From the NCBI GenBank assembly GCA_904393845.1, contig CAJFNB010000003.1, positions 1 to 44,152 on the forward strand: a stretch of 44,152 nucleotides of DNA. The letters run 5' to 3'. Both the position numbers and the translations under genes were made by a program. The stretch is from Candidatus Alloclostridium intestinigallinarum. GTDB lineage: Bacteria; Bacillota; Clostridia; Christensenellales; UBA3700. The notes below the pieces were generated by a model. The model was not told the origin of the DNA. It saw only the letters and a program-made list of their open reading frames with translations, and ran no database searches. Below are positions 22,151 to 44,152 of this stretch, in pieces; positions within the stretch are counted from its first letter, which is position 1; each line of letters begins with the position of its first letter.

Positions 22151-23004
22151 TATTTTACCCTGCCTGCCAGATAGTCCGCAAAGCGCGTGAGTTCTTCCGC
22201 TCGCGGACCGTATTTTGCAATTGCACGCTTGCATTCGGCATTTATCCTATATGCCGCTTTCATTGCTCCATCTATACCTAGAAGCGACACATATGTGACT
22301 TTTCCGTTCTTTTCGTCCTGTCCGGCGCTCTTTCCGAGCACTTCCGCGGAAGATTGGGCGTCCAGAATATCGTCCACTATCTGGAACACCTTTCCAAGAC
22401 AGTCGGCATACAGTTCGAGAGAAGAAACGAGTTCTTCGTCCGCGCCGCATATCATTGCGCCTCCTGCGAGCGCGGCTTTGAAAAGCGCGGAAGTTTTAAG
22501 GGAATTGATCTTATCCAGCTGGCTTACCCCTTCCACTCCGGCATTGTCCGAATTGGCAAGGTCGAGGCATTGTCCGCCCACCATACCGCACATTCCGCTC
22601 TGCGTTGCGATATATCCTGCCGCTCTGCCGGCGCCGCCGATGCACTCGAACGCCAGGTTGAGCAGCGCGTCGCCCGCAAGCACCGCGGTTCCTTCACCGA
22701 ACGCCTTGTGCACGGTAGGGCGACCGCGGCGCAGATCGTCGTCGTCCATACACGGCAAATCGTCGTGTATGAGCGAATAATTATGGATAAATTCCACCGC
22801 GAGCGCAACTTTATCGGCCTTTTCAGGCTCTGCCCCCGCCATACGCGCGCCCATGTAAGCCAATGCGGGGCGCACTCTCTTACCTCCCTCAGACACCGCG
22901 TAGACTACCGCGTCCCATACTGGAGAAAACTTTACGGGGTATGCGTTCAGATAGTCGGAAAGTACGCGTTCAAACCGCTCTATATACAAATTCAGGTTAT
23001 TCAC
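22150..23004 (-). CDS. ispA: Polyprenyl diphosphate synthase (geranyltranstransferase)
   Basis: GGKRVRP, FARM HDDLPCMDDDDLRRG, GQ, KT and SARM FQIVDDILD. Confidence 0.95.
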   Translation of the reverse strand: MNNLNLYIERFERVLSDYLNAYPVKFSPVWDAVVYAVSEGGKRVRPALAYMGARMAGAEPEKADKVALAVEFIHNYSLIHDDLPCMDDDDLRRGRPTVHKAFGEGTAVLAGDALLNLAFECIGGAGRAAGYIATQSGMCGMVGGQCLDLANSDNAGVEGVSQLDKINSLKTSALFKAALAGGAMICGADEELVSSLELYADCLGKVFQIVDDILDAQSSAEVLGKSAGQDEKNGKVTYVSLLGIDGAMKAAYRINAECKRAIAKYGPRAEELTRFADYLAGRVK

Positions 23005-23215
23005 CGCCGTCCTCTCCGTCCGAAATGCGAAGTTTTTCCAGTCTTTCAGAAAGTTCGGTAACCTTACCGGAGCTTTCTTCCAGCTTCTTCATGCACTCTT
23101 CCGCAAGTTTAACGCCCTCGTCGAACAGTTTCAGACCTTCGTCCAGGGACGTGTCCTTATCCTCCATTTTATCGGCAATCTGTTCGAGTTTTTTCAAATT
23201 CTGTTCAAACGTCAT
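22997..23215 (-). CDS. xseB: Exodeoxyribonuclease VII small subunit
   Basis: MTFEQNLKKLEQI...SLDEGLKLFDEGVKL; located between xseA and ispA. Confidence 0.95.
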   Translation of the reverse strand: MTFEQNLKKLEQIADKMEDKDTSLDEGLKLFDEGVKLAEECMKKLEESSGKVTELSERLEKLRISDGEDGGE

Positions 23216-24389
23216 TTTTCACCTCTTTAACCACCGCGCTTGCCCTGCCGTCGCTGCCGGTAAGCGTGATTTCCTCACCGCACGCGAGTTCGGCAACGCG
23301 AGTGACTTCGCCTTGTTTATTGTGAATTATAAAGTATCCCCTTTTCAACATATTCTCGGGGTTGAGAATTTTCAGCCTTATTTCTTCCTGTTTCAGCTTA
23401 GCCTGCATATCTTTCAGATTAGTCTTTAACGAATAGGAAATTTTATCCGCAACGCCGAACACCTGCGACCTTGCCAAAGCTATGCTCTCACGCGAGCGTG
23501 CGCTCATGCGCATACTTAAATGAAGTAAATCCGAACGCATACGCGCTATTTTCCCTTCAAGTCTGTCTTTACAGGAATAGATTGTATCGTATATGAATGC
23601 GGTTATCTCCCTGCTGTCAAAGGCAAGCATATTGCCCGCCGCGGTGGGCGTTGCAGCCCTGACGTCCGCTACAAGGTCACACAGCGTATAGTCGGTTTCG
23701 TGTCCGACGGCGGATATGACGGGCGTCTGTGCGGCGTAAATCGCCCTGACAAGATTTTCGTCGTTGAACGGCATTAACTCTTCCATCGAGCCGCCTCCGC
23801 GCGCTATCACGATTACGTCGTATCCCTGCTTGTCCGCCCTGGCAAGCACTTCGCATATCTTTGCCGCGGCGCCGGCTCCCTGCACGGGCACGTCGGCAAT
23901 ATCTATATCGGTATACGAGTTCTTCGCCCGCATTGTTGTGACGATATCGCGTCTTACCGCTCCGGCAAGCGATGTGAGCACGCATACCCGTTTCGGGTAC
24001 GGCGGAATTTGTTTTTTATGTCCCTCGTCGAAAAAACCTTCCTCCGCAAGGCGTTTTTTCAAAAGTTCGAGTTTGAGCGCAAGCGCACCTTCGCCTACGG
24101 GTTTTATGCTTCGCGCAATGAACGAAATTTTTCCCATTTTCGGCCAGTAGTCGATACTGCCGAAAATAACCACGGCTTCGCCGTTTTTCGGCATATATAT
24201 ATTTTTAACGCCGAAACAGGTACAGGCAATCTTGCAATTTTCATCCTTTATGTCGAAAAATGCGTTGTTGCCTTTTATGGAAAAACCGCTCACTTCTCCG
24301 ACGACGGATATGTCGCGGAGAAGTTCCTCCGCGATGAAAATGTTCTTTATATAACTGTTCAGAACGGTTACGCTGAGTATGTTTTGCAT
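23205..24389 (-). CDS. xseA: Exodeoxyribonuclease VII large subunit
   Basis: GEVSGF, VQG, ARGGGSMEEL, SAVGHETD and ADVRAATPTAA; real start ATG 24389 is coupled to the folD stop (TAATG). Confidence 0.95.
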   Translation of the reverse strand: MQNILSVTVLNSYIKNIFIAEELLRDISVVGEVSGFSIKGNNAFFDIKDENCKIACTCFGVKNIYMPKNGEAVVIFGSIDYWPKMGKISFIARSIKPVGEGALALKLELLKKRLAEEGFFDEGHKKQIPPYPKRVCVLTSLAGAVRRDIVTTMRAKNSYTDIDIADVPVQGAGAAAKICEVLARADKQGYDVIVIARGGGSMEELMPFNDENLVRAIYAAQTPVISAVGHETDYTLCDLVADVRAATPTAAGNMLAFDSREITAFIYDTIYSCKDRLEGKIARMRSDLLHLSMRMSARSRESIALARSQVFGVADKISYSLKTNLKDMQAKLKQEEIRLKILNPENMLKRGYFIIHNKQGEVTRVAELACGEEITLTGSDGRASAVVKEVKNDV

Positions 24390-25234
24390 TATGACAGCCT
24401 GTTTTTCGCCGCGCTCAAAGTATTCGCCAGCAGCATAGTGATCGTCATCGGACCGACACCGCCCGGTACGGGAGTGATAAAGGAACACTTGGGTGCGACT
24501 TCTTCAAAATCAACGTCGCCCACGAGTTTGCCGTCTACCCTGTTTATGCCTACGTCGATTACGACGGCTCCCTCTTTTACCATATCGCCCTTTAAGAATT
24601 TGGGTCTGCCGATCGCCACGACCACGATGTCGGCTTTTCTCGTATAGCTTGCCAGATCTTTCGTCTTACTGTGGCAGACGGTGACGGTGCAGTTTGCATT
24701 GAGAAGCAGCATTGCCATAGGTTTTCCGACGGTATTCGACCTGCCTATGACGACGGCGTCCTTGCCCGCAAGTTCCACACCGGTGGAAGCGAGCAAATGC
24801 ATAACGCCGAGCGGCGTACAGGAAACGGTATTGGGCATATTCATGGACAAAAGTCCCGTATTGGTGGGACTGAAGCCGTCCACGTCCTTGCTGTCGGGAA
24901 TAAGCGAAAGCAGATATTTTTCGTCGTACCCTTTGGGAAGAGGCAGCTGAACCAGAATTCCGTCCACCCCGTCGTCTTCCGCAAGACTGCGGATATAGGC
25001 GGCTATCTCTTCCTGGGGAGTGCCGTTTTCGTACTTCTGACATATAGAGCGGAATCCGACCTGCGCACACCCTTTTATCTTGTTGTTTACATAGGTGTGC
25101 GACGCGGGATCGTCGCCTACGATTATTACCGCCAAAGCGGGCACTCTGCCGAATTGTCTGTTGAATTCTACGGTTTTTTCCGCCAGATCCTGCCTGATGT
25201 CCGCCGAAACCGCCTTACCGCTTATCAGTTGCAT
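24389..25234 (-). CDS. folD: Methylenetetrahydrofolate dehydrogenase/cyclohydrolase
   Basis: YVNNK, GILVQLPLP, KDVDG, CTPLG, GRSNTVGKP and TPVPGGVGPMT. Confidence 0.97.
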   Translation of the reverse strand: MQLISGKAVSADIRQDLAEKTVEFNRQFGRVPALAVIIVGDDPASHTYVNNKIKGCAQVGFRSICQKYENGTPQEEIAAYIRSLAEDDGVDGILVQLPLPKGYDEKYLLSLIPDSKDVDGFSPTNTGLLSMNMPNTVSCTPLGVMHLLASTGVELAGKDAVVIGRSNTVGKPMAMLLLNANCTVTVCHSKTKDLASYTRKADIVVVAIGRPKFLKGDMVKEGAVVIDVGINRVDGKLVGDVDFEEVAPKCSFITPVPGGVGPMTITMLLANTLSAAKNRLS

Positions 25235-25237
25235 ATT

Positions 25238-25642
25238 TTACGCCTCCAATTTTTTGTATACGCCCGCAAGTACGCCGTTTACAAACGCCGCGCTTTTTTC
25301 CGTAGAGTAACTTTTGACAAGTTCGAGCACTTCGCTGACGGATACGGGCATAGGTATATCGTCCATATATTTCATTTCATACGCCGCAAGCAAAAGCGCC
25401 GCCAGATCGGGTCTGAATATGCGCTCCGGGTTAAATCCCGTCGTGCAGGACGAAATAAGTTCAACAAGTTCGTCGAAGTGGTCGATCACCCCGTCGTAGA
25501 CCGTTTGGATATAATTTTTGTCCGCCTGGGTAATATTCGAGTCCGCACAGACGATGTCAAGCGTAAAACCGTCCCTTTCTTTGCGGAAAAGATATTCGAA
25601 AATCAACTTATACGCGCTGTCTCTTGCAATTCTTCTGCTCAT
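25238..25642 (-). CDS. nusB: Transcription antitermination factor NusB
   Basis: N-terminal SRRIARD Arg motif and FVNGVL. Confidence 0.93.
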   Translation of the reverse strand: MSRRIARDSAYKLIFEYLFRKERDGFTLDIVCADSNITQADKNYIQTVYDGVIDHFDELVELISSCTTGFNPERIFRPDLAALLLAAYEMKYMDDIPMPVSVSEVLELVKSYSTEKSAAFVNGVLAGVYKKLEA

Positions 25643-25696
25643 ACAAACCTCTTTGGTATAAAAAGCCCCGCCGCCGCTTCCGCGGCAGCGAGGAAG

Positions 25697-26053
25697 TCAG
25701 TCATTGAAAACCACACCCGCGACAAATACGTTGATAGCTTTCACCTTGTAGTAGGTGGAACTTTCCACCGCCTGCTTTATCTGCTCCTGCATATCGCACA
25801 CGACCTGGGGAATCACGTAGCCGTAATAGACGTTTATCGCAATATCGATAGTAGCCATATCGTCCATAAGCGTAACGGTGATTGCGCTGGTCCTCTTCTT
25901 TCTCGACGGCGTGAACGCAGGTCCATTGTATCCGACTTCGTACGACACGGACGCCACCCCTTCCACCTGCGAAGCCACTCCGCAGGCGATAGAGGAAATC
26001 ACGCTCTGGTAAGTATCTTTATTTGACAGATCCTGCTTATTGCTGCTTGCCAT
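25697..26053 (-). CDS. Asp23/Gls24 family protein (YqhY-like)
   Basis: VISSIACGVASQVEGV...YGYVIPQVVCDMQEQIKQAVE...INVFVAGV; usual position before nusB; start set to 26053 after a GAGG RBS. Confidence 0.88.
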   Translation of the reverse strand: MASSNKQDLSNKDTYQSVISSIACGVASQVEGVASVSYEVGYNGPAFTPSRKKRTSAITVTLMDDMATIDIAINVYYGYVIPQVVCDMQEQIKQAVESSTYYKVKAINVFVAGVVFND

Positions 26054-26141
26054 ACTTCCTCTCTCGGGCACATATTATAATAATTATACCCTTATTGTAA
26101 TAAGTTTAACACATATAAAAGAAAATTACAAGTGTTTGCGA

Positions 26142-26645
26142 TTATTCCTCGGAGTAAGGCACCACCACGACCTGTGTAGCGTTATAATCCGTTTCGGACA
26201 GTATCACCGAAAGTATGCCCGCCACCTGCTCGCTTGTAAGTTCGCTTTGGGATACGACGACGTTGATATTGTCTTCGCTCATCGTGACTACCGCGTCTTC
26301 AAAGCCCTGCGCCTTGACAAGCCCTTCCAGGACGAGTTCGCGCTCTATTACGTCGATAAGTTCGAGCTTCTTTTCGTTGGCGGAAGCGATAAGTTCTTCA
26401 GTAGAAGTATCGGAAGACAATATCGCGTCCAGAAGTGCGAATTCTTCCGCCCTTGCGGTTTCGCGCTCCGCCCTGCACGAGGTGAAGAATGTTTCCGCGG
26501 TGGTTACGGTGTTGCCGTCGTTGCCCGACTGGACTATTTTGTCGTTGAGCACGAAGTTGAGCGTGCCCGTGACGATGAGCAACGCAACCATCGAACAAAG
26601 TACGATGACTTTTTTTGCGTTTGCCGAAAGTTTTTTGATTTTCAT
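26142..26645 (-). CDS. spoIIIAH: Stage III sporulation protein AH
   Basis: N-terminal TM, FFTSCRAERETAR and LEGLVKAQGFEDAVV; last gene of the operon. Confidence 0.9.
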   Translation of the reverse strand: MKIKKLSANAKKVIVLCSMVALLIVTGTLNFVLNDKIVQSGNDGNTVTTAETFFTSCRAERETARAEEFALLDAILSSDTSTEELIASANEKKLELIDVIERELVLEGLVKAQGFEDAVVTMSEDNINVVVSQSELTSEQVAGILSVILSETDYNATQVVVVPYSEE

Positions 26646-39655: not shown

Positions 39656-40732
39656 TTATCCCTCGAATACGTCGCCAACTATTCCGCTCACTTCGGAATA
39701 AGGCTTGACGTCTATTTTCCAATCGGTGAGTTTTGCCGCAAGGCGTACGTTCTGACCTGCCTTACCTATCGCAAGAGAAAGTTTGTCGTCGGGAACGATT
39801 GCCGTCGCCTTCTTTTCCTCTTCGTTTATCTGTACCATCATCGCCTTTGCGGGACTCAAAGCCCTGGCTATAAATTCGCTTATGTCGGAACACCATTCGA
39901 TAACGTCGATCTTCTCGCCGTCGAGTTCGTGTACGATATTATTTATGCGCATACCGCGGGGACCTACGCAGCTGCCCACGCAGTCAAGCGAAGGATCGTC
40001 GGATGTGACAGCCATTTTGGTTCTGTACCCGGCCTCGCGCACGATTTTCTTGATGACGACAAGTCCGCTTCTGATTTCGGGAACTTCCATCTCGAACAGC
40101 CTTTTGACAAATCCCGTGCACGCGCGGGAAACCATAACCTGGGGATTGCCCCTGTCGGAACTGCGCACGCTCTTGACATACACCTTGATAATGGCGTTGA
40201 CGTCGTATCTCTCGCCGCGTATCTGGTCGTTCTTCATCATGATGCCTTCCATCTGCGAGCCGCTTATTTCGACATATACGTTGTCTTTTTCCACTCTGCG
40301 AATAATGGCGGTTACAATTTCGCCCTCCTTTTCGTTCATTTCGCTGAGCACCTGGTTCTTGCGCTCGTCGTTGAGGCGCTGCATGATGACCTGCTTCGCC
40401 GTCTGCGCCGCGATACGGGAGAACAGCTTGGGTGAAAGTTCTTCGTCGATAAAGTGGTCGCCGATATTGTATATCTCCTTGACCTTACGCGCGTCTTCCA
40501 AAGAAATCTGCCTGTCGGGATCTTCAACGGTTTCCACAACGTCCCTGTAAGCAAAAACTCTTATCGTGTACTTCGAGGGATTGAGCTGTATATCAATGCC
40601 GCGGTTGAGTCCCGTTTCCTTCTTGTATGCGGAACTTAAACCGGCTTCCATCGTGGAAATAAACATATCCTGACTTACTTTTCTTTCCTTTTCAAGCTCC
40701 ATAAGCGCCTGAAAAAATTCCTTGCTGACCAT
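39656..40732 (-). CDS. nusA: Transcription termination factor NusA
   Basis: RIAAQTAKQVIMQ, FEMEVPEI, REAGYRTK, CVGPRG, ALSPA and AIGKAGQNVRLA. Confidence 0.98.
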   Translation of the reverse strand: MVSKEFFQALMELEKERKVSQDMFISTMEAGLSSAYKKETGLNRGIDIQLNPSKYTIRVFAYRDVVETVEDPDRQISLEDARKVKEIYNIGDHFIDEELSPKLFSRIAAQTAKQVIMQRLNDERKNQVLSEMNEKEGEIVTAIIRRVEKDNVYVEISGSQMEGIMMKNDQIRGERYDVNAIIKVYVKSVRSSDRGNPQVMVSRACTGFVKRLFEMEVPEIRSGLVVIKKIVREAGYRTKMAVTSDDPSLDCVGSCVGPRGMRINNIVHELDGEKIDVIEWCSDISEFIARALSPAKAMMVQINEEEKKATAIVPDDKLSLAIGKAGQNVRLAAKLTDWKIDVKPYSEVSGIVGDVFEG

Positions 40733-40741
40733 TTTATCCTC

Positions 40742-41200
40742 CTAAAATTCGATATACGGCTTTGCCGCCGCAATCTGCTTTAATTGTATTTTTATAGTTT
40801 TATCCCCGTCCTGCAGGGTTATTTCCTCATCGGTTGCGCCGCTTAGCACGGCGATGTACTTCTTTTTACCGTCCAGGGGCGCGTAAAGCGAAACTTCCAC
40901 CTTCTCCCCCAGCTTGCGGCGGTAATCGCCCGGGCTTTTCAGGGGGCGGTCCAGTCCCGGCGACGACACGTTCAGATTGTACGGCATTCCCTCCGTGGGA
41001 TCGAGTTCGTCGATGGGTGCGTCGATAGCCCTGTGTATAAGCTCGCAGTCGTCAAGGCTGACGCCGCCCGGCTTATCAATATAAATTGTGAGCGTGGGCG
41101 TACCGTACAGCTTTTTGAATTCGACTTCCACAAGCTCCATACCGTTTGCCTCCACTATCGGGCGCACTACACGTTCGGCTGCGTCTGCAATTTTTGACAT
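40742..41200 (-). CDS. rimP: Ribosome maturation factor RimP
   Basis: IDKPGGVSLDDC and YNLNVSSPGLDRPL; start 41200 after an AAGGAG RBS. Confidence 0.96.
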   Translation of the reverse strand: MSKIADAAERVVRPIVEANGMELVEVEFKKLYGTPTLTIYIDKPGGVSLDDCELIHRAIDAPIDELDPTEGMPYNLNVSSPGLDRPLKSPGDYRRKLGEKVEVSLYAPLDGKKKYIAVLSGATDEEITLQDGDKTIKIQLKQIAAAKPYIEF

Positions 41201-41219
41201 TACTTTCTCCTTTATAGCG

Positions 41220-41249
41220 TTTGAGCGACCGATTGCTCGGTCGCTCAAA
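41220..41249 (-). promoter_or_regulatory. rimP leader hairpin
   Basis: 13-bp perfect stem TTTGAGCGACCGA/TCGGTCGCTCAAA with a GCAA tetraloop on the coding strand, between promoter and RBS. Confidence 0.7.
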
Positions 41250-41274
41250 TAAATCACTTTATTCTTGCATAATT

Positions 41275-41303
41275 ATTATATCAGCATAAATATCAAAACG
41301 CAA
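41275..41303 (-). promoter_or_regulatory. sigmaA promoter of the rimP-nusA-infB operon
   Basis: Minus strand TTGCGT-17-TATAAT with extended TG. Confidence 0.7.
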
Positions 41304-41344
41304 CCGTTTTGACGCAAAATATCGGAATATCTTAAAAGATATCG

Positions 41345-42883
41345 CTATATCGTCTTCAGATTGCCGTATCTTACCAGTTCCGCGAAAAGTTTTGCCGTGG
41401 CTATGCAGTCCGCATACGCCCTGTGCGCGTTGATAAGAGGTATATGGAAATAGCGGCACAGATCGCCCAGATTGTGTTTGCACGGAATACGCAGATAATT
41501 CGCCATCTCCAGCGTATCTATCAGTTTATTCCTGAATTCCGCCCCCGCCTCCTTGAGCAGTCTGCCCAATAATATGTAGTCGTAGTTGTTGCCGTTATGC
41601 GCGATGACCGGGCTGTTTCCGATAAATTCCAGCATCTGCGGCAGGACGTATTCGATGGGAGGCGCGCCCTGGACGTCATTGTCGTATATATTGTTTTTTT
41701 CCGACGCGTCGCGCGGAATGGGAATGCCCGGATCGACGAACGTATCGAAATATTCCACTACCTTGCCGTCGGTCATTCTGGCTATGCCCACTTCTATCAC
41801 CTTGCACGCGGCGGGATTAAGTCCCGTGGTTTCGAAATCGAGCGAAACATATGTCCTGCCAGCCAGAAGCGGATTGGTTTCGGTGAGAATCTGTTCCAGA
41901 CTGTCGGCGGAATCGCTGTACGAAATGATCGGCACGGGAGTCTTGTCGAACGCCTTTTGCGGTTCGCTGTCGTCAACCGCGGAATAGTCGATATCGCAGA
42001 AAGACACTCTGTCTACTATAAACTTCCGTTTGCCGACGGTGTTGTTCTCGTCTTCGAACGAGCCGACCGTCTTTATCGTCATTCCGTCCGTAAGCGCCCC
42101 CAGCACGCCGCCTTTCTTTCTGCGCGTGAACATTATGCAGTCAAGACTGCCCGTAGTGTCGTTCAGCGTAAACGTGTGGAAGTGATACCCTTTCTTGCTC
42201 ACCCTGTCCTGCAAGTCGGATATAGTGCCGGCAACGCAGGTTTCAAATGCGTTTTCCGGCAGACGGGATATATACAGCGCGGAATCCGTGATCGGCTTGC
42301 CCACGAGTACCGATTCCCCGGAAATTGAGTGAAAGTACTGCTTTGCCTGGACGGCTTCCATTTTCGGCGCGGAATCGTCGATTTTGAAAGCGTCTGCCGC
42401 GTGCCTGGTTACGGTGACTTTTGACTGTGTGCCGTAAAGTTCGTCTATATAATCCGCTATCGCCTCGGGAATCTCCGCCGCCGTAAAAGCCCCCGCAAGA
42501 TAATCGGGCACGTCTACGTTTATAAGCGGAACGCCGTTTTCGATATCGGCGGTAACTGCGTCCTGCGATATCTGGGAGCAGTACGCACCGTATTGCTCGG
42601 CAAGGAATTTTTCCGTAAGGCGTTTGATGATGTCTGCATTATAATACACTTTTTTGTATATTACGCTTACGGGCATAGTGACGCCCTCTTCCATGAAGAT
42701 TTCGGATATTGCGGAAGATATTATCTCCGTTTCACCGCCGGAAGTCAGCCCGTCGTATACGTCGTAAGGCACGGAAACGGTAACGCTTACGCTTCCCGCA
42801 CGCTTGTCCACGGAAACGTCTTTGAAGCGGATAAACGGATATTTACCCCCTGTTTTATCTTTAAACTTCTCTTCAAGTACCAT
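41345..42883 (-). CDS. PolC-derived protein: PolC-like N-terminal region, OB fold and DEDDh 3'-5' exonuclease; no PHP or polymerase domain
   Basis: Exo I LDFETTGL, Exo II AHNGNNYD and Exo III HRAYAD; OB-like VAGTI...SKKG...FTLNDTTGSL; occupies the ispG-polC-rimP position. Confidence 0.8.
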   Translation of the reverse strand: MVLEEKFKDKTGGKYPFIRFKDVSVDKRAGSVSVTVSVPYDVYDGLTSGGETEIISSAISEIFMEEGVTMPVSVIYKKVYYNADIIKRLTEKFLAEQYGAYCSQISQDAVTADIENGVPLINVDVPDYLAGAFTAAEIPEAIADYIDELYGTQSKVTVTRHAADAFKIDDSAPKMEAVQAKQYFHSISGESVLVGKPITDSALYISRLPENAFETCVAGTISDLQDRVSKKGYHFHTFTLNDTTGSLDCIMFTRRKKGGVLGALTDGMTIKTVGSFEDENNTVGKRKFIVDRVSFCDIDYSAVDDSEPQKAFDKTPVPIISYSDSADSLEQILTETNPLLAGRTYVSLDFETTGLNPAACKVIEVGIARMTDGKVVEYFDTFVDPGIPIPRDASEKNNIYDNDVQGAPPIEYVLPQMLEFIGNSPVIAHNGNNYDYILLGRLLKEAGAEFRNKLIDTLEMANYLRIPCKHNLGDLCRYFHIPLINAHRAYADCIATAKLFAELVRYGNLKTI

Positions 42884-42884
42884 T

Positions 42885-43916
42885 TTACAGTTTATCTATC
42901 TCCGTAAGAAGCGCCTGCATAAGCTCTTCGTTGGGCACTGTCCTGAGTATCTTTCCGTCCCTGAACAGCGCGGATTTTTCTCTGCCTCCGGCAACGCCTA
43001 TATCGCAATGGGAGGATTCGCCTATACCGTTCACCACACAGCCCATTACGGCTATCTGTAAATTTTTATTCACTCCCGACGTATATTCTCTCACTTTTTC
43101 GGCAAGCCCTTTTACGTCTATTTCCGTCCTGGCGCAGGTGGGACAGGAAATTATCTCCACGTACGGTTTGCCGTAAAGGTTGATTGCCTTCAATATCTCG
43201 CAGGCGGCGTCCACCTCCTTTACCGGGTCGTCGGTGAGGGATACGCGTATCGTATCGCCGATACCGTCGAGCAAAAGACTTCCTATACCTATCGCGGATT
43301 TTACCAGTCCCTGCGTATATAACCCCGCCTCGGTCACGCCCAGATGCAGAGGATAACCGCACCTTTGCGACAGCAGACGGTTACAGTCCACCATATCCTT
43401 CACGCAGGAAGACTTTACCGACACCACTATATCGTAAACGCCGTATTTTTCCAGCATGGCGCAATATTCCAGCGCGCTTTCGCACATAGCTTCCGCGGGC
43501 GGAAGCGCGGCGTACTTTTTATCGAGAGAGCCGCCGTTTACCCCCACCCTTACAGGTATACGGTGTGCTTTCAGGCAATCGGCAACCGCCCTAAGATTGC
43601 TTTCACCGCCGAGATTGCCGGGATTTATCCTGACTTTCGCGGCGCCGTTTTCTATGGCGGCTATCGCCAGCTTGTAGTCGAAGTGAATATCCGCGACCAC
43701 GGGAAGCGGCGATTTTTCGCAGATTGTCTTAAACGCTTTTGCGGAAGCGGAGTCGGGCACGGACGAGCGCACTATGTCGCAGCCGCGCGCGGCAAGCTCC
43801 GCTATCTGTTCAAGCGTGGCTTCCGCGTCGGATGTGGGGGTATTCGTCATTGACTGGACGGCAATTCTCTCTCCGCCGCCTATCGTTACTTTTCCTATTC
43901 GTACTTTCTTACTCAT
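42885..43916 (-). CDS. ispG: (E)-4-hydroxy-3-methylbut-2-enyl diphosphate synthase
   Basis: VQSMTNT, ADIHF, RINPGN, PLHLGVTEAG, GIGDTIRVSLT, CPTCAR and MGCVVNG. Confidence 0.98.
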   Translation of the reverse strand: MSKKVRIGKVTIGGGERIAVQSMTNTPTSDAEATLEQIAELAARGCDIVRSSVPDSASAKAFKTICEKSPLPVVADIHFDYKLAIAAIENGAAKVRINPGNLGGESNLRAVADCLKAHRIPVRVGVNGGSLDKKYAALPPAEAMCESALEYCAMLEKYGVYDIVVSVKSSCVKDMVDCNRLLSQRCGYPLHLGVTEAGLYTQGLVKSAIGIGSLLLDGIGDTIRVSLTDDPVKEVDAACEILKAINLYGKPYVEIISCPTCARTEIDVKGLAEKVREYTSGVNKNLQIAVMGCVVNGIGESSHCDIGVAGGREKSALFRDGKILRTVPNEELMQALLTEIDKL

Positions 43917-43917
43917 A

Positions 43918-44152
43918 TTATGCCAAGAAGTGTACCAGATCGAGAATTACCGCCAACGCGAGCAGAACTATCAGTCCGGCAAAGTGTATTATATTTTCTA
44001 CTTTTCTGTTAATAGGCTTTCCCCTCACCCACTCGATCAGCGTGAAAATTACCTTACAGCCGTCAAGCGCGGGGAAAGGAAGTATGTTCATTATCGCCAC
44101 CGAAGCCGACAACACGCATACCCCGTACATTATCGCATAAAATCCGAATTGT
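43918..44152 (-). CDS. rseP: RIP metalloprotease RseP/RasP (M50), C-terminal fragment
   Basis: MNILPFPALDG motif and EWVRGKP...ENIIHFAG; located upstream of ispG. Confidence 0.92.
   Translation of the reverse strand, partial: QFGFYAIMYGVCVLSASVAIMNILPFPALDGCKVIFTLIEWVRGKPINRKVENIIHFAGLIVLLALAVILDLVHFLA

Follow-up and report, generated by a model that had tools for sequence, protein, structure and literature searches.

Introduction

What does a bacterium keep at its polC locus when the polymerase for which the gene is named is gone, and for what is the remainder kept? The question is raised by a 512-residue open reading frame (ORF) in a stretch of DNA of 44,152 nucleotides, hereafter the window, from Candidatus Alloclostridium intestinigallinarum (assembly GCA_904393845.1, contig CAJFNB010000003.1, positions 1 to 44,152 of the forward strand). 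The ORF lies between ispG and rimP, and a preliminary description of the sequence took it for a PolC derivative that had lost its polymerase by clean excision, had kept an N-terminal domain (NTD), an oligonucleotide-binding (OB) fold and an intact DEDDh exonuclease, and might serve DnaE in trans as an epsilon-like proofreading subunit. The evidence set out below makes it nearly certain that this protein, here called the short form, descends from polC, that its architecture is clean, arose once and is under purifying selection, and that no PolC-type polymerase accompanies it, DnaE1 being thus the chromosomal replicase. That the short form serves DnaE1 in trans, either as an additional proofreader or as a processor of 3' ends, is a proposal whose chances appear evenly balanced, and the whole statement, descent and mechanism together, is given a slight preference over its denial.

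Architecture of the protein

ORF calling, Pfam and the family alignment agree on a 512-residue frame with an OB segment and a C-terminal DEDDh exonuclease, and the three motifs quoted in the preliminary description (LDFETTG, HNGNNYD and HRAYAD) translate exactly. Pfam matches the RNase_T family (PF00929) at residues 346-500 (E = 1.7e-22, 81.2 bits against a gathering threshold of 24) and an OB fold weakly at residues 203-276, OB families being matched in 50 of the 56 family members. The five catalytic residues D349, E351, D435, H487 and D492 are invariant in 56/56 aligned members, an alignment outside which stand the forms of genus g52 described below. The protein belongs to the DEDDh/RNase_T superfamily with a predicted 3'-5' exonuclease activity, and it ends at the last helix of the exonuclease, with at most about 7 residues beyond.

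Both PHP halves and the whole polymerase were said to be missing, and this holds: within the ORF Pfam finds no match to PHP (PF02811), and Pfam and NCBIfam find none to the Pol III alpha core (PF07733, fingers, HhH). The linker of 42 residues between the OB fold and the exonuclease contains no histidine and no HxH, at a place where the PolC proteins of the order read ...RVELHLHT....

The AlphaFold model of the protein (mean pLDDT 87.8, pTM 0.44, a combination that fits beads on a string) lays out two alpha/beta subdomains, a disordered stretch, an OB barrel, a linker and the exonuclease, with the boundaries given in Table 1. When modelled alone the NTD reaches a pLDDT of 93.2, and its halves match the KH domain of S3, Era, RbfA, DnaA domain I and DciA with Z scores of 6-8.7, which is the common-fold range for KH-like folds, among the best 50 matches viewed. 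Neither tau domain V nor PolC is among those 50 best matches of the wide NTD structural search, all of which have Z of at most 8.7. The modelled KH-like halves agree with the published prediction of the PolC NTD as a pair of tau-domain-V-like or type-II KH-like folds (PMC3919608, PMC12926913), the Z values being those of a common fold; the PolC NTD itself is reported as unresolved in the 2025 cryo-electron microscopy structures 9QRN and 9QPC (PMC12592400).

Descent from polC

Among NCBIfam models the PolC model NF001688 fits the protein best, but the match is confined to its positions 407-585 and reaches 140 bits where the cut-off is 873; in a genome-wide search model positions 188-311 weakly match the OB part, collinearly, with E = 6.8e-5. 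Among solved structures, PolC exonucleases are the best relatives of the exonuclease domain (2p1j, E = 1.3e-22; 9qpc, E = 8.5e-20), and the top structural match found by Foldseek is the Enterococcus faecium PolC 9qpc, over 398 columns (E = 7.4e-17), with ExoX, ExoI and TREX also among the fold matches.

Homology of the N-terminal and OB parts to PolC, which the preliminary description had proposed to check, is borne out by hhalign: in a comparison of 22 short forms with 16 full PolCs of the order, residues 15-295 align with PolC columns 19-315, collinearly, with a probability of 99.5% and E = 3.7e-23, and each part is also matched separately, the NTD with E = 1.3e-9 and the OB fold with E = 1.3e-16. 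Because the Pfam models of the PolC N-terminus miss nearly all members (PF11490 matches 1/56, PF14480 0/56), it is this profile-profile comparison that demonstrates the homology of the NTD. A plain hidden Markov model of residues 1-330 also matches the N-termini of 5 of 6 PolCs, and the ESM Atlas offers, as a lead only, PolC-NI/NII clusters for residues 1-165 (score 0.85). In a sample of 40 genomes taken from other families in the phylum, the N-terminal part of the family model mostly matches within the long frames that the PolC matches also occupy, as all its strongest matches do; two weak OB-only matches lie in frames of about 1140 residues.

Gene order points the same way. The order ispG-X-rimP-nusA-infB is found at 12/12 short-form loci, and full-length polC stands directly after ispG at 6/6 PolC loci, with rimP-nusA-infB within the fetched stretch in 3 of them. 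Synteny settles the orthology, and the ORF is the positional orthologue of polC. The protein is thus a PolC derivative, yet it is no PolC, since it has neither PHP domain nor polymerase and does not reach the cut-off score. Very probably polC lost both PHP halves and the whole polymerase in an ancestor shared by a large branch of the order, and kept the two N-terminal subdomains, the OB fold, a linker and the DEDDh exonuclease.

Distribution, single origin and selection

A search of 41 relatives, in which PolC was scored against the NF001688 cut-off, found PolC above the cut-off in 12 of them, in frames of 1416-1474 residues. The other 29, namely all 25 of the window's family (including one assembled as a single contig) and 4 from other families, have no PolC above the cut-off; they hold an exonuclease match in a frame of about 510-550 residues (one frame has 363) together with a DnaE1-sized frame. 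Full-length polC stands at the locus in 0/24 close relatives within the family, and is met only in other families of the order. A search with the family alignment (E at most 7e-100, counted by hand) finds the full-length short form, of about 505-580 residues, in 83 of 201 sampled genomes of the order and in 16 of its 42 families, including 7/7 sampled genomes of a family with genomes of 0.8-1.1 Mb, and in 0/40 genomes sampled outside the order. The order is probably Christensenellales, as judged by the source names of the homologues.

In a tree of the shared NTD, OB and exonuclease columns the short forms make up one clade (SH-aLRT 100) on a stem of 1.43 changes per site, and once 7 PolCs from outside families are added this clade is nested among the PolCs of the order; the tree with this outgroup was built without two long-branch PolCs (L038, L042) and 5 of the 22 short rows, and a second tree without the outgroup. 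When DnaE1 from 12 short-form genomes and 9 PolC genomes is placed in a tree, the two groups are likewise parted by one branch, with a support of 100. All of these trees are quick searches, and they fit one ancient truncation event with vertical inheritance thereafter.

Comparisons within the genus give a dN of 0.13-0.16 and a dS of at least 1.6, which corresponds to an omega of about 0.08, and omega does not exceed 0.13 in the NTD, the OB fold and the exonuclease taken separately (0.05-0.13), values similar to those of ispG and rimP next door; since dS is saturated, exceeding 1 in every available pair, omega is rough, and two short linker segments are without a dS estimate. Purifying selection on a clade-wide architecture is indicated by these comparisons, and evolution has been fast: the protein is 58-59% identical to its orthologue in G001, where the corresponding figure for DnaE1 is 88%.

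In a draft assembly of 108 contigs (genome 97.75% complete) one could suspect that the gene is misassembled, decaying as a pseudogene or the product of a recent deletion. In an independent DNA run a contig of 10,843 nucleotides spans positions 40700-44000 with 28 substitutions and 0 gaps, and because this independent contig covers the locus without a gap, the locus is no assembly artefact. The occurrence in 83/201 genomes, a dN/dS of about 0.1 and the invariant catalytic residues speak against deletion and decay as well, so that this explanation is already refuted and its truth would be extraordinary. The earlier judgement of clean excision rather than decay, made from an uninterrupted frame lying close to ispG, thus stands, and the architecture is kept by relatives under purifying selection, as had been suggested for verification.

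The replicase of the genome

Pol III alpha homologues were counted across the contigs of the window's own genome (G000), and there are two, PF07733 being matched on contigs C24 and C1 only. On C24 (positions 22705-26436; L011) lies a DnaE1 of 1243 residues, scoring 1415.7 bits with NF005298 against a cut-off of 1260, with PHP, polymerase, fingers, HhH and OB domains and the clamp motif QMSLF; a Qxx[LMI]F clamp motif is present in 19 of the 21 DnaE1 proteins checked.

The second homologue, a divergent DnaE of 1069 residues on contig C1 (44000-54000; L012), was considered as a hidden replicase and rejected, as it is below every equivalog cut-off and has mobile-element-like neighbours. It lies by a PD-(D/E)XK nuclease, a primase-helicase fusion with Zn-ribbon, Toprim and DnaB_C parts, and an NrdD-type reductase, and the locus is probably the replication module of a prophage or another mobile element.

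The search for another polC that had been proposed for the full genome was thus negative, and no PolC-type polymerase scores over the cut-off in any of the 29 short-form genomes, the window's own and 28 relatives, one of these a single contig. Because no PolC-type polymerase is present and the other DnaE is mobile-element-like, DnaE1 is the predicted chromosomal replicase, one already equipped with a PHP proofreader. The same results bear on the idea of a split PolC, whose polymerase half would be encoded elsewhere and would reassemble with the short form. Separation of exonuclease and polymerase does occur, since PolC genes without an exonuclease are common elsewhere in the phylum (16/27), but the Pol III alpha matches of the own genome are accounted for by DnaE1, above its equivalog cut-off, and the mobile-element DnaE, and among the 29 short-form genomes no PolC polymerase, and in none an exonuclease-less PolC, is seen. 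A split PolC is therefore very improbable.

The own DnaE1 also has a Lys/Glu-rich N-terminal extension of about 50 residues before the PHP HxH. It is 19-105 residues long in 6 of the 7 further family members checked, whereas PolC-bearing genomes have 6-24 residues there; these lengths are uncertain, as start codons were chosen mechanically. In the draft, the clamp-loader gene dnaX is interrupted by an assembly break: one contig end, of C41, has its N-terminal 65 model positions and another, of C33, has positions 135-355, so that the split is no feature of the gene itself.

Possible function of the short form

In the preferred mechanism the protein is an accessory subunit of a replisome that runs on DnaE1 alone. 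Single-stranded DNA or the primer-template junction would be held by its OB fold, and contacts with other proteins would fall to the two KH-like subdomains at the N-terminus. The exonuclease, acting in trans, would clip mismatched 3' ends and so supplement the PHP site of DnaE1 with a second proofreader. In most lineages, the window's genus excepted, attachment to the beta clamp would be provided by the linker peptide Qxx[LMI]F. The mechanism is proposed because the catalytic residues are invariant, the NTD and OB fold are under selection, and most members carry the linker motif.

That motif is present between the OB fold and the exonuclease in 34 of the 56 members (alignment A1), with a relaxed form in 6 more, all 34 carriers being among the 47 members outside the window's clade. 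It resembles the clamp consensus QL[S/D]LF, in which positions 1, 4 and 5 weigh most (PMC3919608). Among 16 full PolCs of the order, 11 have such a motif at the extreme C-terminus and none has one in the corresponding linker, for which reason the linker motif looks newly acquired after loss of the C-terminus. Co-folding of a short form from another genome (G012, residues 296-509, with the peptide QQNMF) with the DnaN of that genome, both supplied as alignments, gave ipSAE values of 0.31 and 0.26 against a mark of 0.32, with no controls, and speaks neither for nor against binding.

The clamps themselves differ among these genera: the DnaN proteins of the window's genus (L059, L068-L075) are 36-38% identical to that of G012 (L058), a member of the same family, and those of other genera of the family 45-50%. 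The clamp thus appears to have diverged unusually in the same genus whose PolC remnant lost the clamp-like motif, although DnaE1 in this genus retains QMSLF.

Several results weigh against the accessory exonuclease, in addition to the coarseness of the trees and of omega mentioned above. In the window's own clade the linker is without Qxx[LMI]F in 9/9 members, reading ...SADSLEQIL.... The PHP site of DnaE1, defined as active by the nine-residue pattern HHDHEHCDH (PMC12926913) and mapped here by motif context, is complete in 21/21 DnaE1 proteins checked (12 from short-form and 9 from PolC genomes), the own one included, so that a proofreader in trans is not obviously required. The genome also encodes on contig C19 (24389-24961; L013:4390-4962) a stand-alone DEDDh exonuclease of 190 residues, for which PolC-type models are the best (133.8 bits to NF001688); it is flanked by a glutamate dehydrogenase and a YbaK-like editing protein, similar frames of about 200-290 residues are found in other genomes of the genus, and it could be the proofreader instead. 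The epsilon models score below their cut-offs (TIGR01406, 61.8 bits against 222.7; NF004316, 52.1 against 196), and the short form lacks the alpha-binding tail that follows the exonuclease in the Escherichia coli epsilon subunit.

The most telling case is genus g52, which belongs to another family, f42. Its four genomes (L132-L135, corresponding to G190, G168, G065 and G096), in which no PolC is found, all keep an orthologue of 545-548 residues in the slot between ispG and rimP, and in all four every DEDDh residue is replaced (the ExoI motif reading, for instance, LHVNSTGL). The frames are nevertheless intact at 40-66% mutual identity, and the linker keeps an RQ[MI]xF-type peptide. That a dead form stays intact over this divergence implies that at least part of the conserved function is non-catalytic. 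The preliminary proposal of an epsilon-like trans proofreader for DnaE consequently keeps its conditional standing, complicated as it is by the complete PHP site of DnaE1, by the absence of the features of E. coli epsilon and by the dead exonuclease of g52.

The four dead orthologues, in genomes without PolC, are the kind of protein to be expected if the short form were mainly a structural replisome subunit, in which the NTD pair, the OB fold and the exonuclease fold serve as a scaffold and the exonuclease chemistry is secondary and can be lost. Such a scaffold could, for example, couple DnaE1 to the clamp, the clamp loader or the helicase, or hold the template strand; the NTD and OB fold are constrained as strongly as the exonuclease, and the NTD halves resemble KH-like interaction modules such as DnaA domain I and DciA, a common fold at these Z values. 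On the other side, the invariance of the five catalytic residues in the 56 aligned members argues that catalysis is selected, and the partner is only postulated, which leaves a mainly structural role unlikely, though g52 makes it a serious rival.

A free-standing 3'-5' exonuclease of repair or recombination, similar to ExoI or ExoX, appears improbable as well. The OB fold would here hold single-stranded DNA with no specific tie to the replicase, and the position beside rimP would be merely inherited from polC. The combination of OB fold and DEDDh domain would suffice for such an enzyme, ExoX, ExoI and TREX are among its fold matches, DnaE1 already has its PHP proofreader, and the window's clade lacks the clamp-like motif; but the PolC-specific N-terminal pair is kept and constrained, a clamp-binding-like motif is present in 34/56 members, all seven small genomes of 0.8-1.1 Mb keep the protein, and the dead forms of g52 would be useless as repair nucleases.

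A further idea, built on this scaffold reading and on g52 and put forward tentatively, is that the front end of PolC (KH-like pair, OB fold and exonuclease fold) is an autonomous replisome-organising module that docks on DnaE1, on the clamp or on both at primer ends. Docking may then be what selection keeps, having outlived the polymerase throughout one branch of the order and in one genus also the exonuclease chemistry. If this were true, PolC would add an essential role other than bulk synthesis to the Clostridial replisomes that have both PolC and DnaE1, with DnaE1 as the true replicase there.

The locus and its neighbours

The coordinates of the gene, its parts and its neighbours are collected in Table 1. 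One base separates the stop codon of ispG from the ATG of the ORF, in keeping with the tight coupling described before. On the other side the short gap to rimP, for which a promoter had been noted, contains a promoter-like site and a hairpin, both being consensus matches; the conserved ATG of rimP is at 41200, and the genes past rimP are nusA, ylxR, an L7Ae-like gene and infB.

Table 1. Coordinates of the short-form gene, its domains and motifs, and the adjoining features in the window
Feature	Position	Strand	Basis
Whole ORF, 512 residues plus stop, ATG start; polymerase-less PolC derivative (NTD-OB-exonuclease)	41345..42883	-	ORF, Pfam, NCBIfam, alignment
N-terminal subdomain I, residues 1-79, alpha/beta KH-like fold	42647..42883	-	AlphaFold, pLDDT about 93; type-II KH-like matches, Z up to about 6.5
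N-terminal subdomain II, residues 80-165, second KH-like alpha/beta fold	42389..42646	-	AlphaFold; Z up to 8.7, common fold
Flexible linker, residues 166-186; pLDDT <50 over 164-179	42326..42388	-	AlphaFold
OB fold, residues 187-298, homologous to PolC OB domain	41990..42325	-	hhalign, E = 1.3e-16
OB-to-exonuclease linker, residues 299-340, at the site of the first PHP half of PolC	41864..41989	-	Alignment
DEDDh 3'-5' exonuclease (predicted), residues 341-512	41348..41863	-	Pfam; PolC-embedded exonucleases are the closest relatives
ExoI motif DFETTG (D349, E351)	41822..41839	-	Translation, alignment
ExoII motif HNGNNYD (N430, D435)	41579..41599	-	Translation, alignment
ExoIII motif HRAYAD (H487, D492)	41408..41425	-	Translation, alignment
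ispG, upstream neighbour	42885..43916	-	ORF list, synteny
Spacer between ORF and rimP, 144 bp; promoter-like site TTGATA-16-AATTAT and hairpin	41201..41344	-	Consensus matches only
rimP, opening the rimP-nusA-ylxR-infB block found after polC in relatives	40742..41200	-	ORF, synteny

Contigs from three RNA libraries (two studies) cover the ORF, and one of 1,009 nucleotides bridges the junction with ispG; as carry-over of DNA is possible, they are no proof of a transcript. In one RNA run positions 41105-41306 are uncovered, which proves nothing.

Several studies of animal-gut metagenomes, those of chickens included, contain DNA nearly identical to positions 40700-44000 (the share of sampled words being 0.77-0.81), and on this ground the organism is an animal-gut commensal.

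Comparison with known systems

No description of a polymerase-less or truncated PolC was found in the literature searched, which did not cover the supplements of PMC3919608 and PMC12926913, where fragments or DnaE1-only Clostridia may be listed. Surveys of C-family polymerases discard fragments without the polymerase active site (PMC3919608) or drop truncated sequences (PMC12926913, 2026), the latter also assigning stand-alone DnaQ proteins conservatively, so that genomes of this kind are scored as plainly DnaE1-only and the accessory protein is missed. In databases the homologues are named 'exonuclease domain-containing protein' or 'DNA polymerase III epsilon subunit family exonuclease'.

The short form amounts to a natural dissection of PolC across a whole clade, in which selection on the NTD and OB fold without a polymerase gives a direct handle on the role of these domains. 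It also bears on the question, raised in PMC3919608, of which enzyme replicates the chromosome in Clostridia with both PolC and DnaE1, since DnaE1 evidently suffices here; direct tests become possible both of what the front end of PolC does and of how the two polymerases share the work in such replisomes. Gut Clostridia with the short form have no PolC polymerase as a target for PolC-directed drugs such as ibezapolstat (for the drug context see PMC12592400), a point that matters for predicting which commensals are spared.

Compared with full PolC, the short form has the same N-terminal pair, OB fold and DEDDh exonuclease, in the same order and in the same slot between ispG and rimP-nusA-infB, but it lacks the PHP halves, the palm-thumb-fingers polymerase, the HhH and the C-terminal clamp motif, and cannot polymerise. 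The exonuclease-less PolCs noted for Clostridia (PMC3919608) are another natural PolC variant, occurring within the same bacterial class, in which exonuclease and polymerase are likewise separated. They are the reciprocal case, keeping the NTD, OB fold, PHP domain and polymerase where the short form keeps the exonuclease. This variant is the commonest form in the phylum sample (L095-L111), in 16 of 27 PolC-positive genomes, with frames of about 1141-1279 residues that the PolC model matches only from about 605 to 1444, skipping the exonuclease segment (about 409-604), and 13 of these 16 frames are also matched by the NTD/OB profile of the short form, minus its exonuclease part. The best exonuclease match in such genomes often lies in frames of about 930-980 residues, possibly DinG-type fusions.

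Like the E. coli epsilon subunit (DnaQ), the short form is a DEDDh exonuclease encoded apart from DnaE1 that may act in trans, but it has 340 additional PolC-derived N-terminal residues, and the PHP site of its DnaE1 is intact. A further parallel is the non-canonical mycobacterial DnaQ, an extra DEDDh exonuclease beside a PHP-proficient DnaE1, which binds the clamp and proofreads together with the PHP domain, its clamp motif being dispensable for the antimutator function (PMC11348249); the short-form family offers a comparable picture, since most of its members have the motif and the window's genus has lost it. The short form differs in being PolC-derived, with an additional NTD and OB fold, and any clamp binding by the family is a prediction. 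In Bacillus subtilis, finally, the PolC exonuclease corrects errors of DnaE in a complex of DnaE, PolC and template (PMC5627055), and it is this activity that is proposed to survive in the short form; there the exonuclease is part of a full PolC and its partner is DnaE3, whereas here it stands alone and the partner would be DnaE1.

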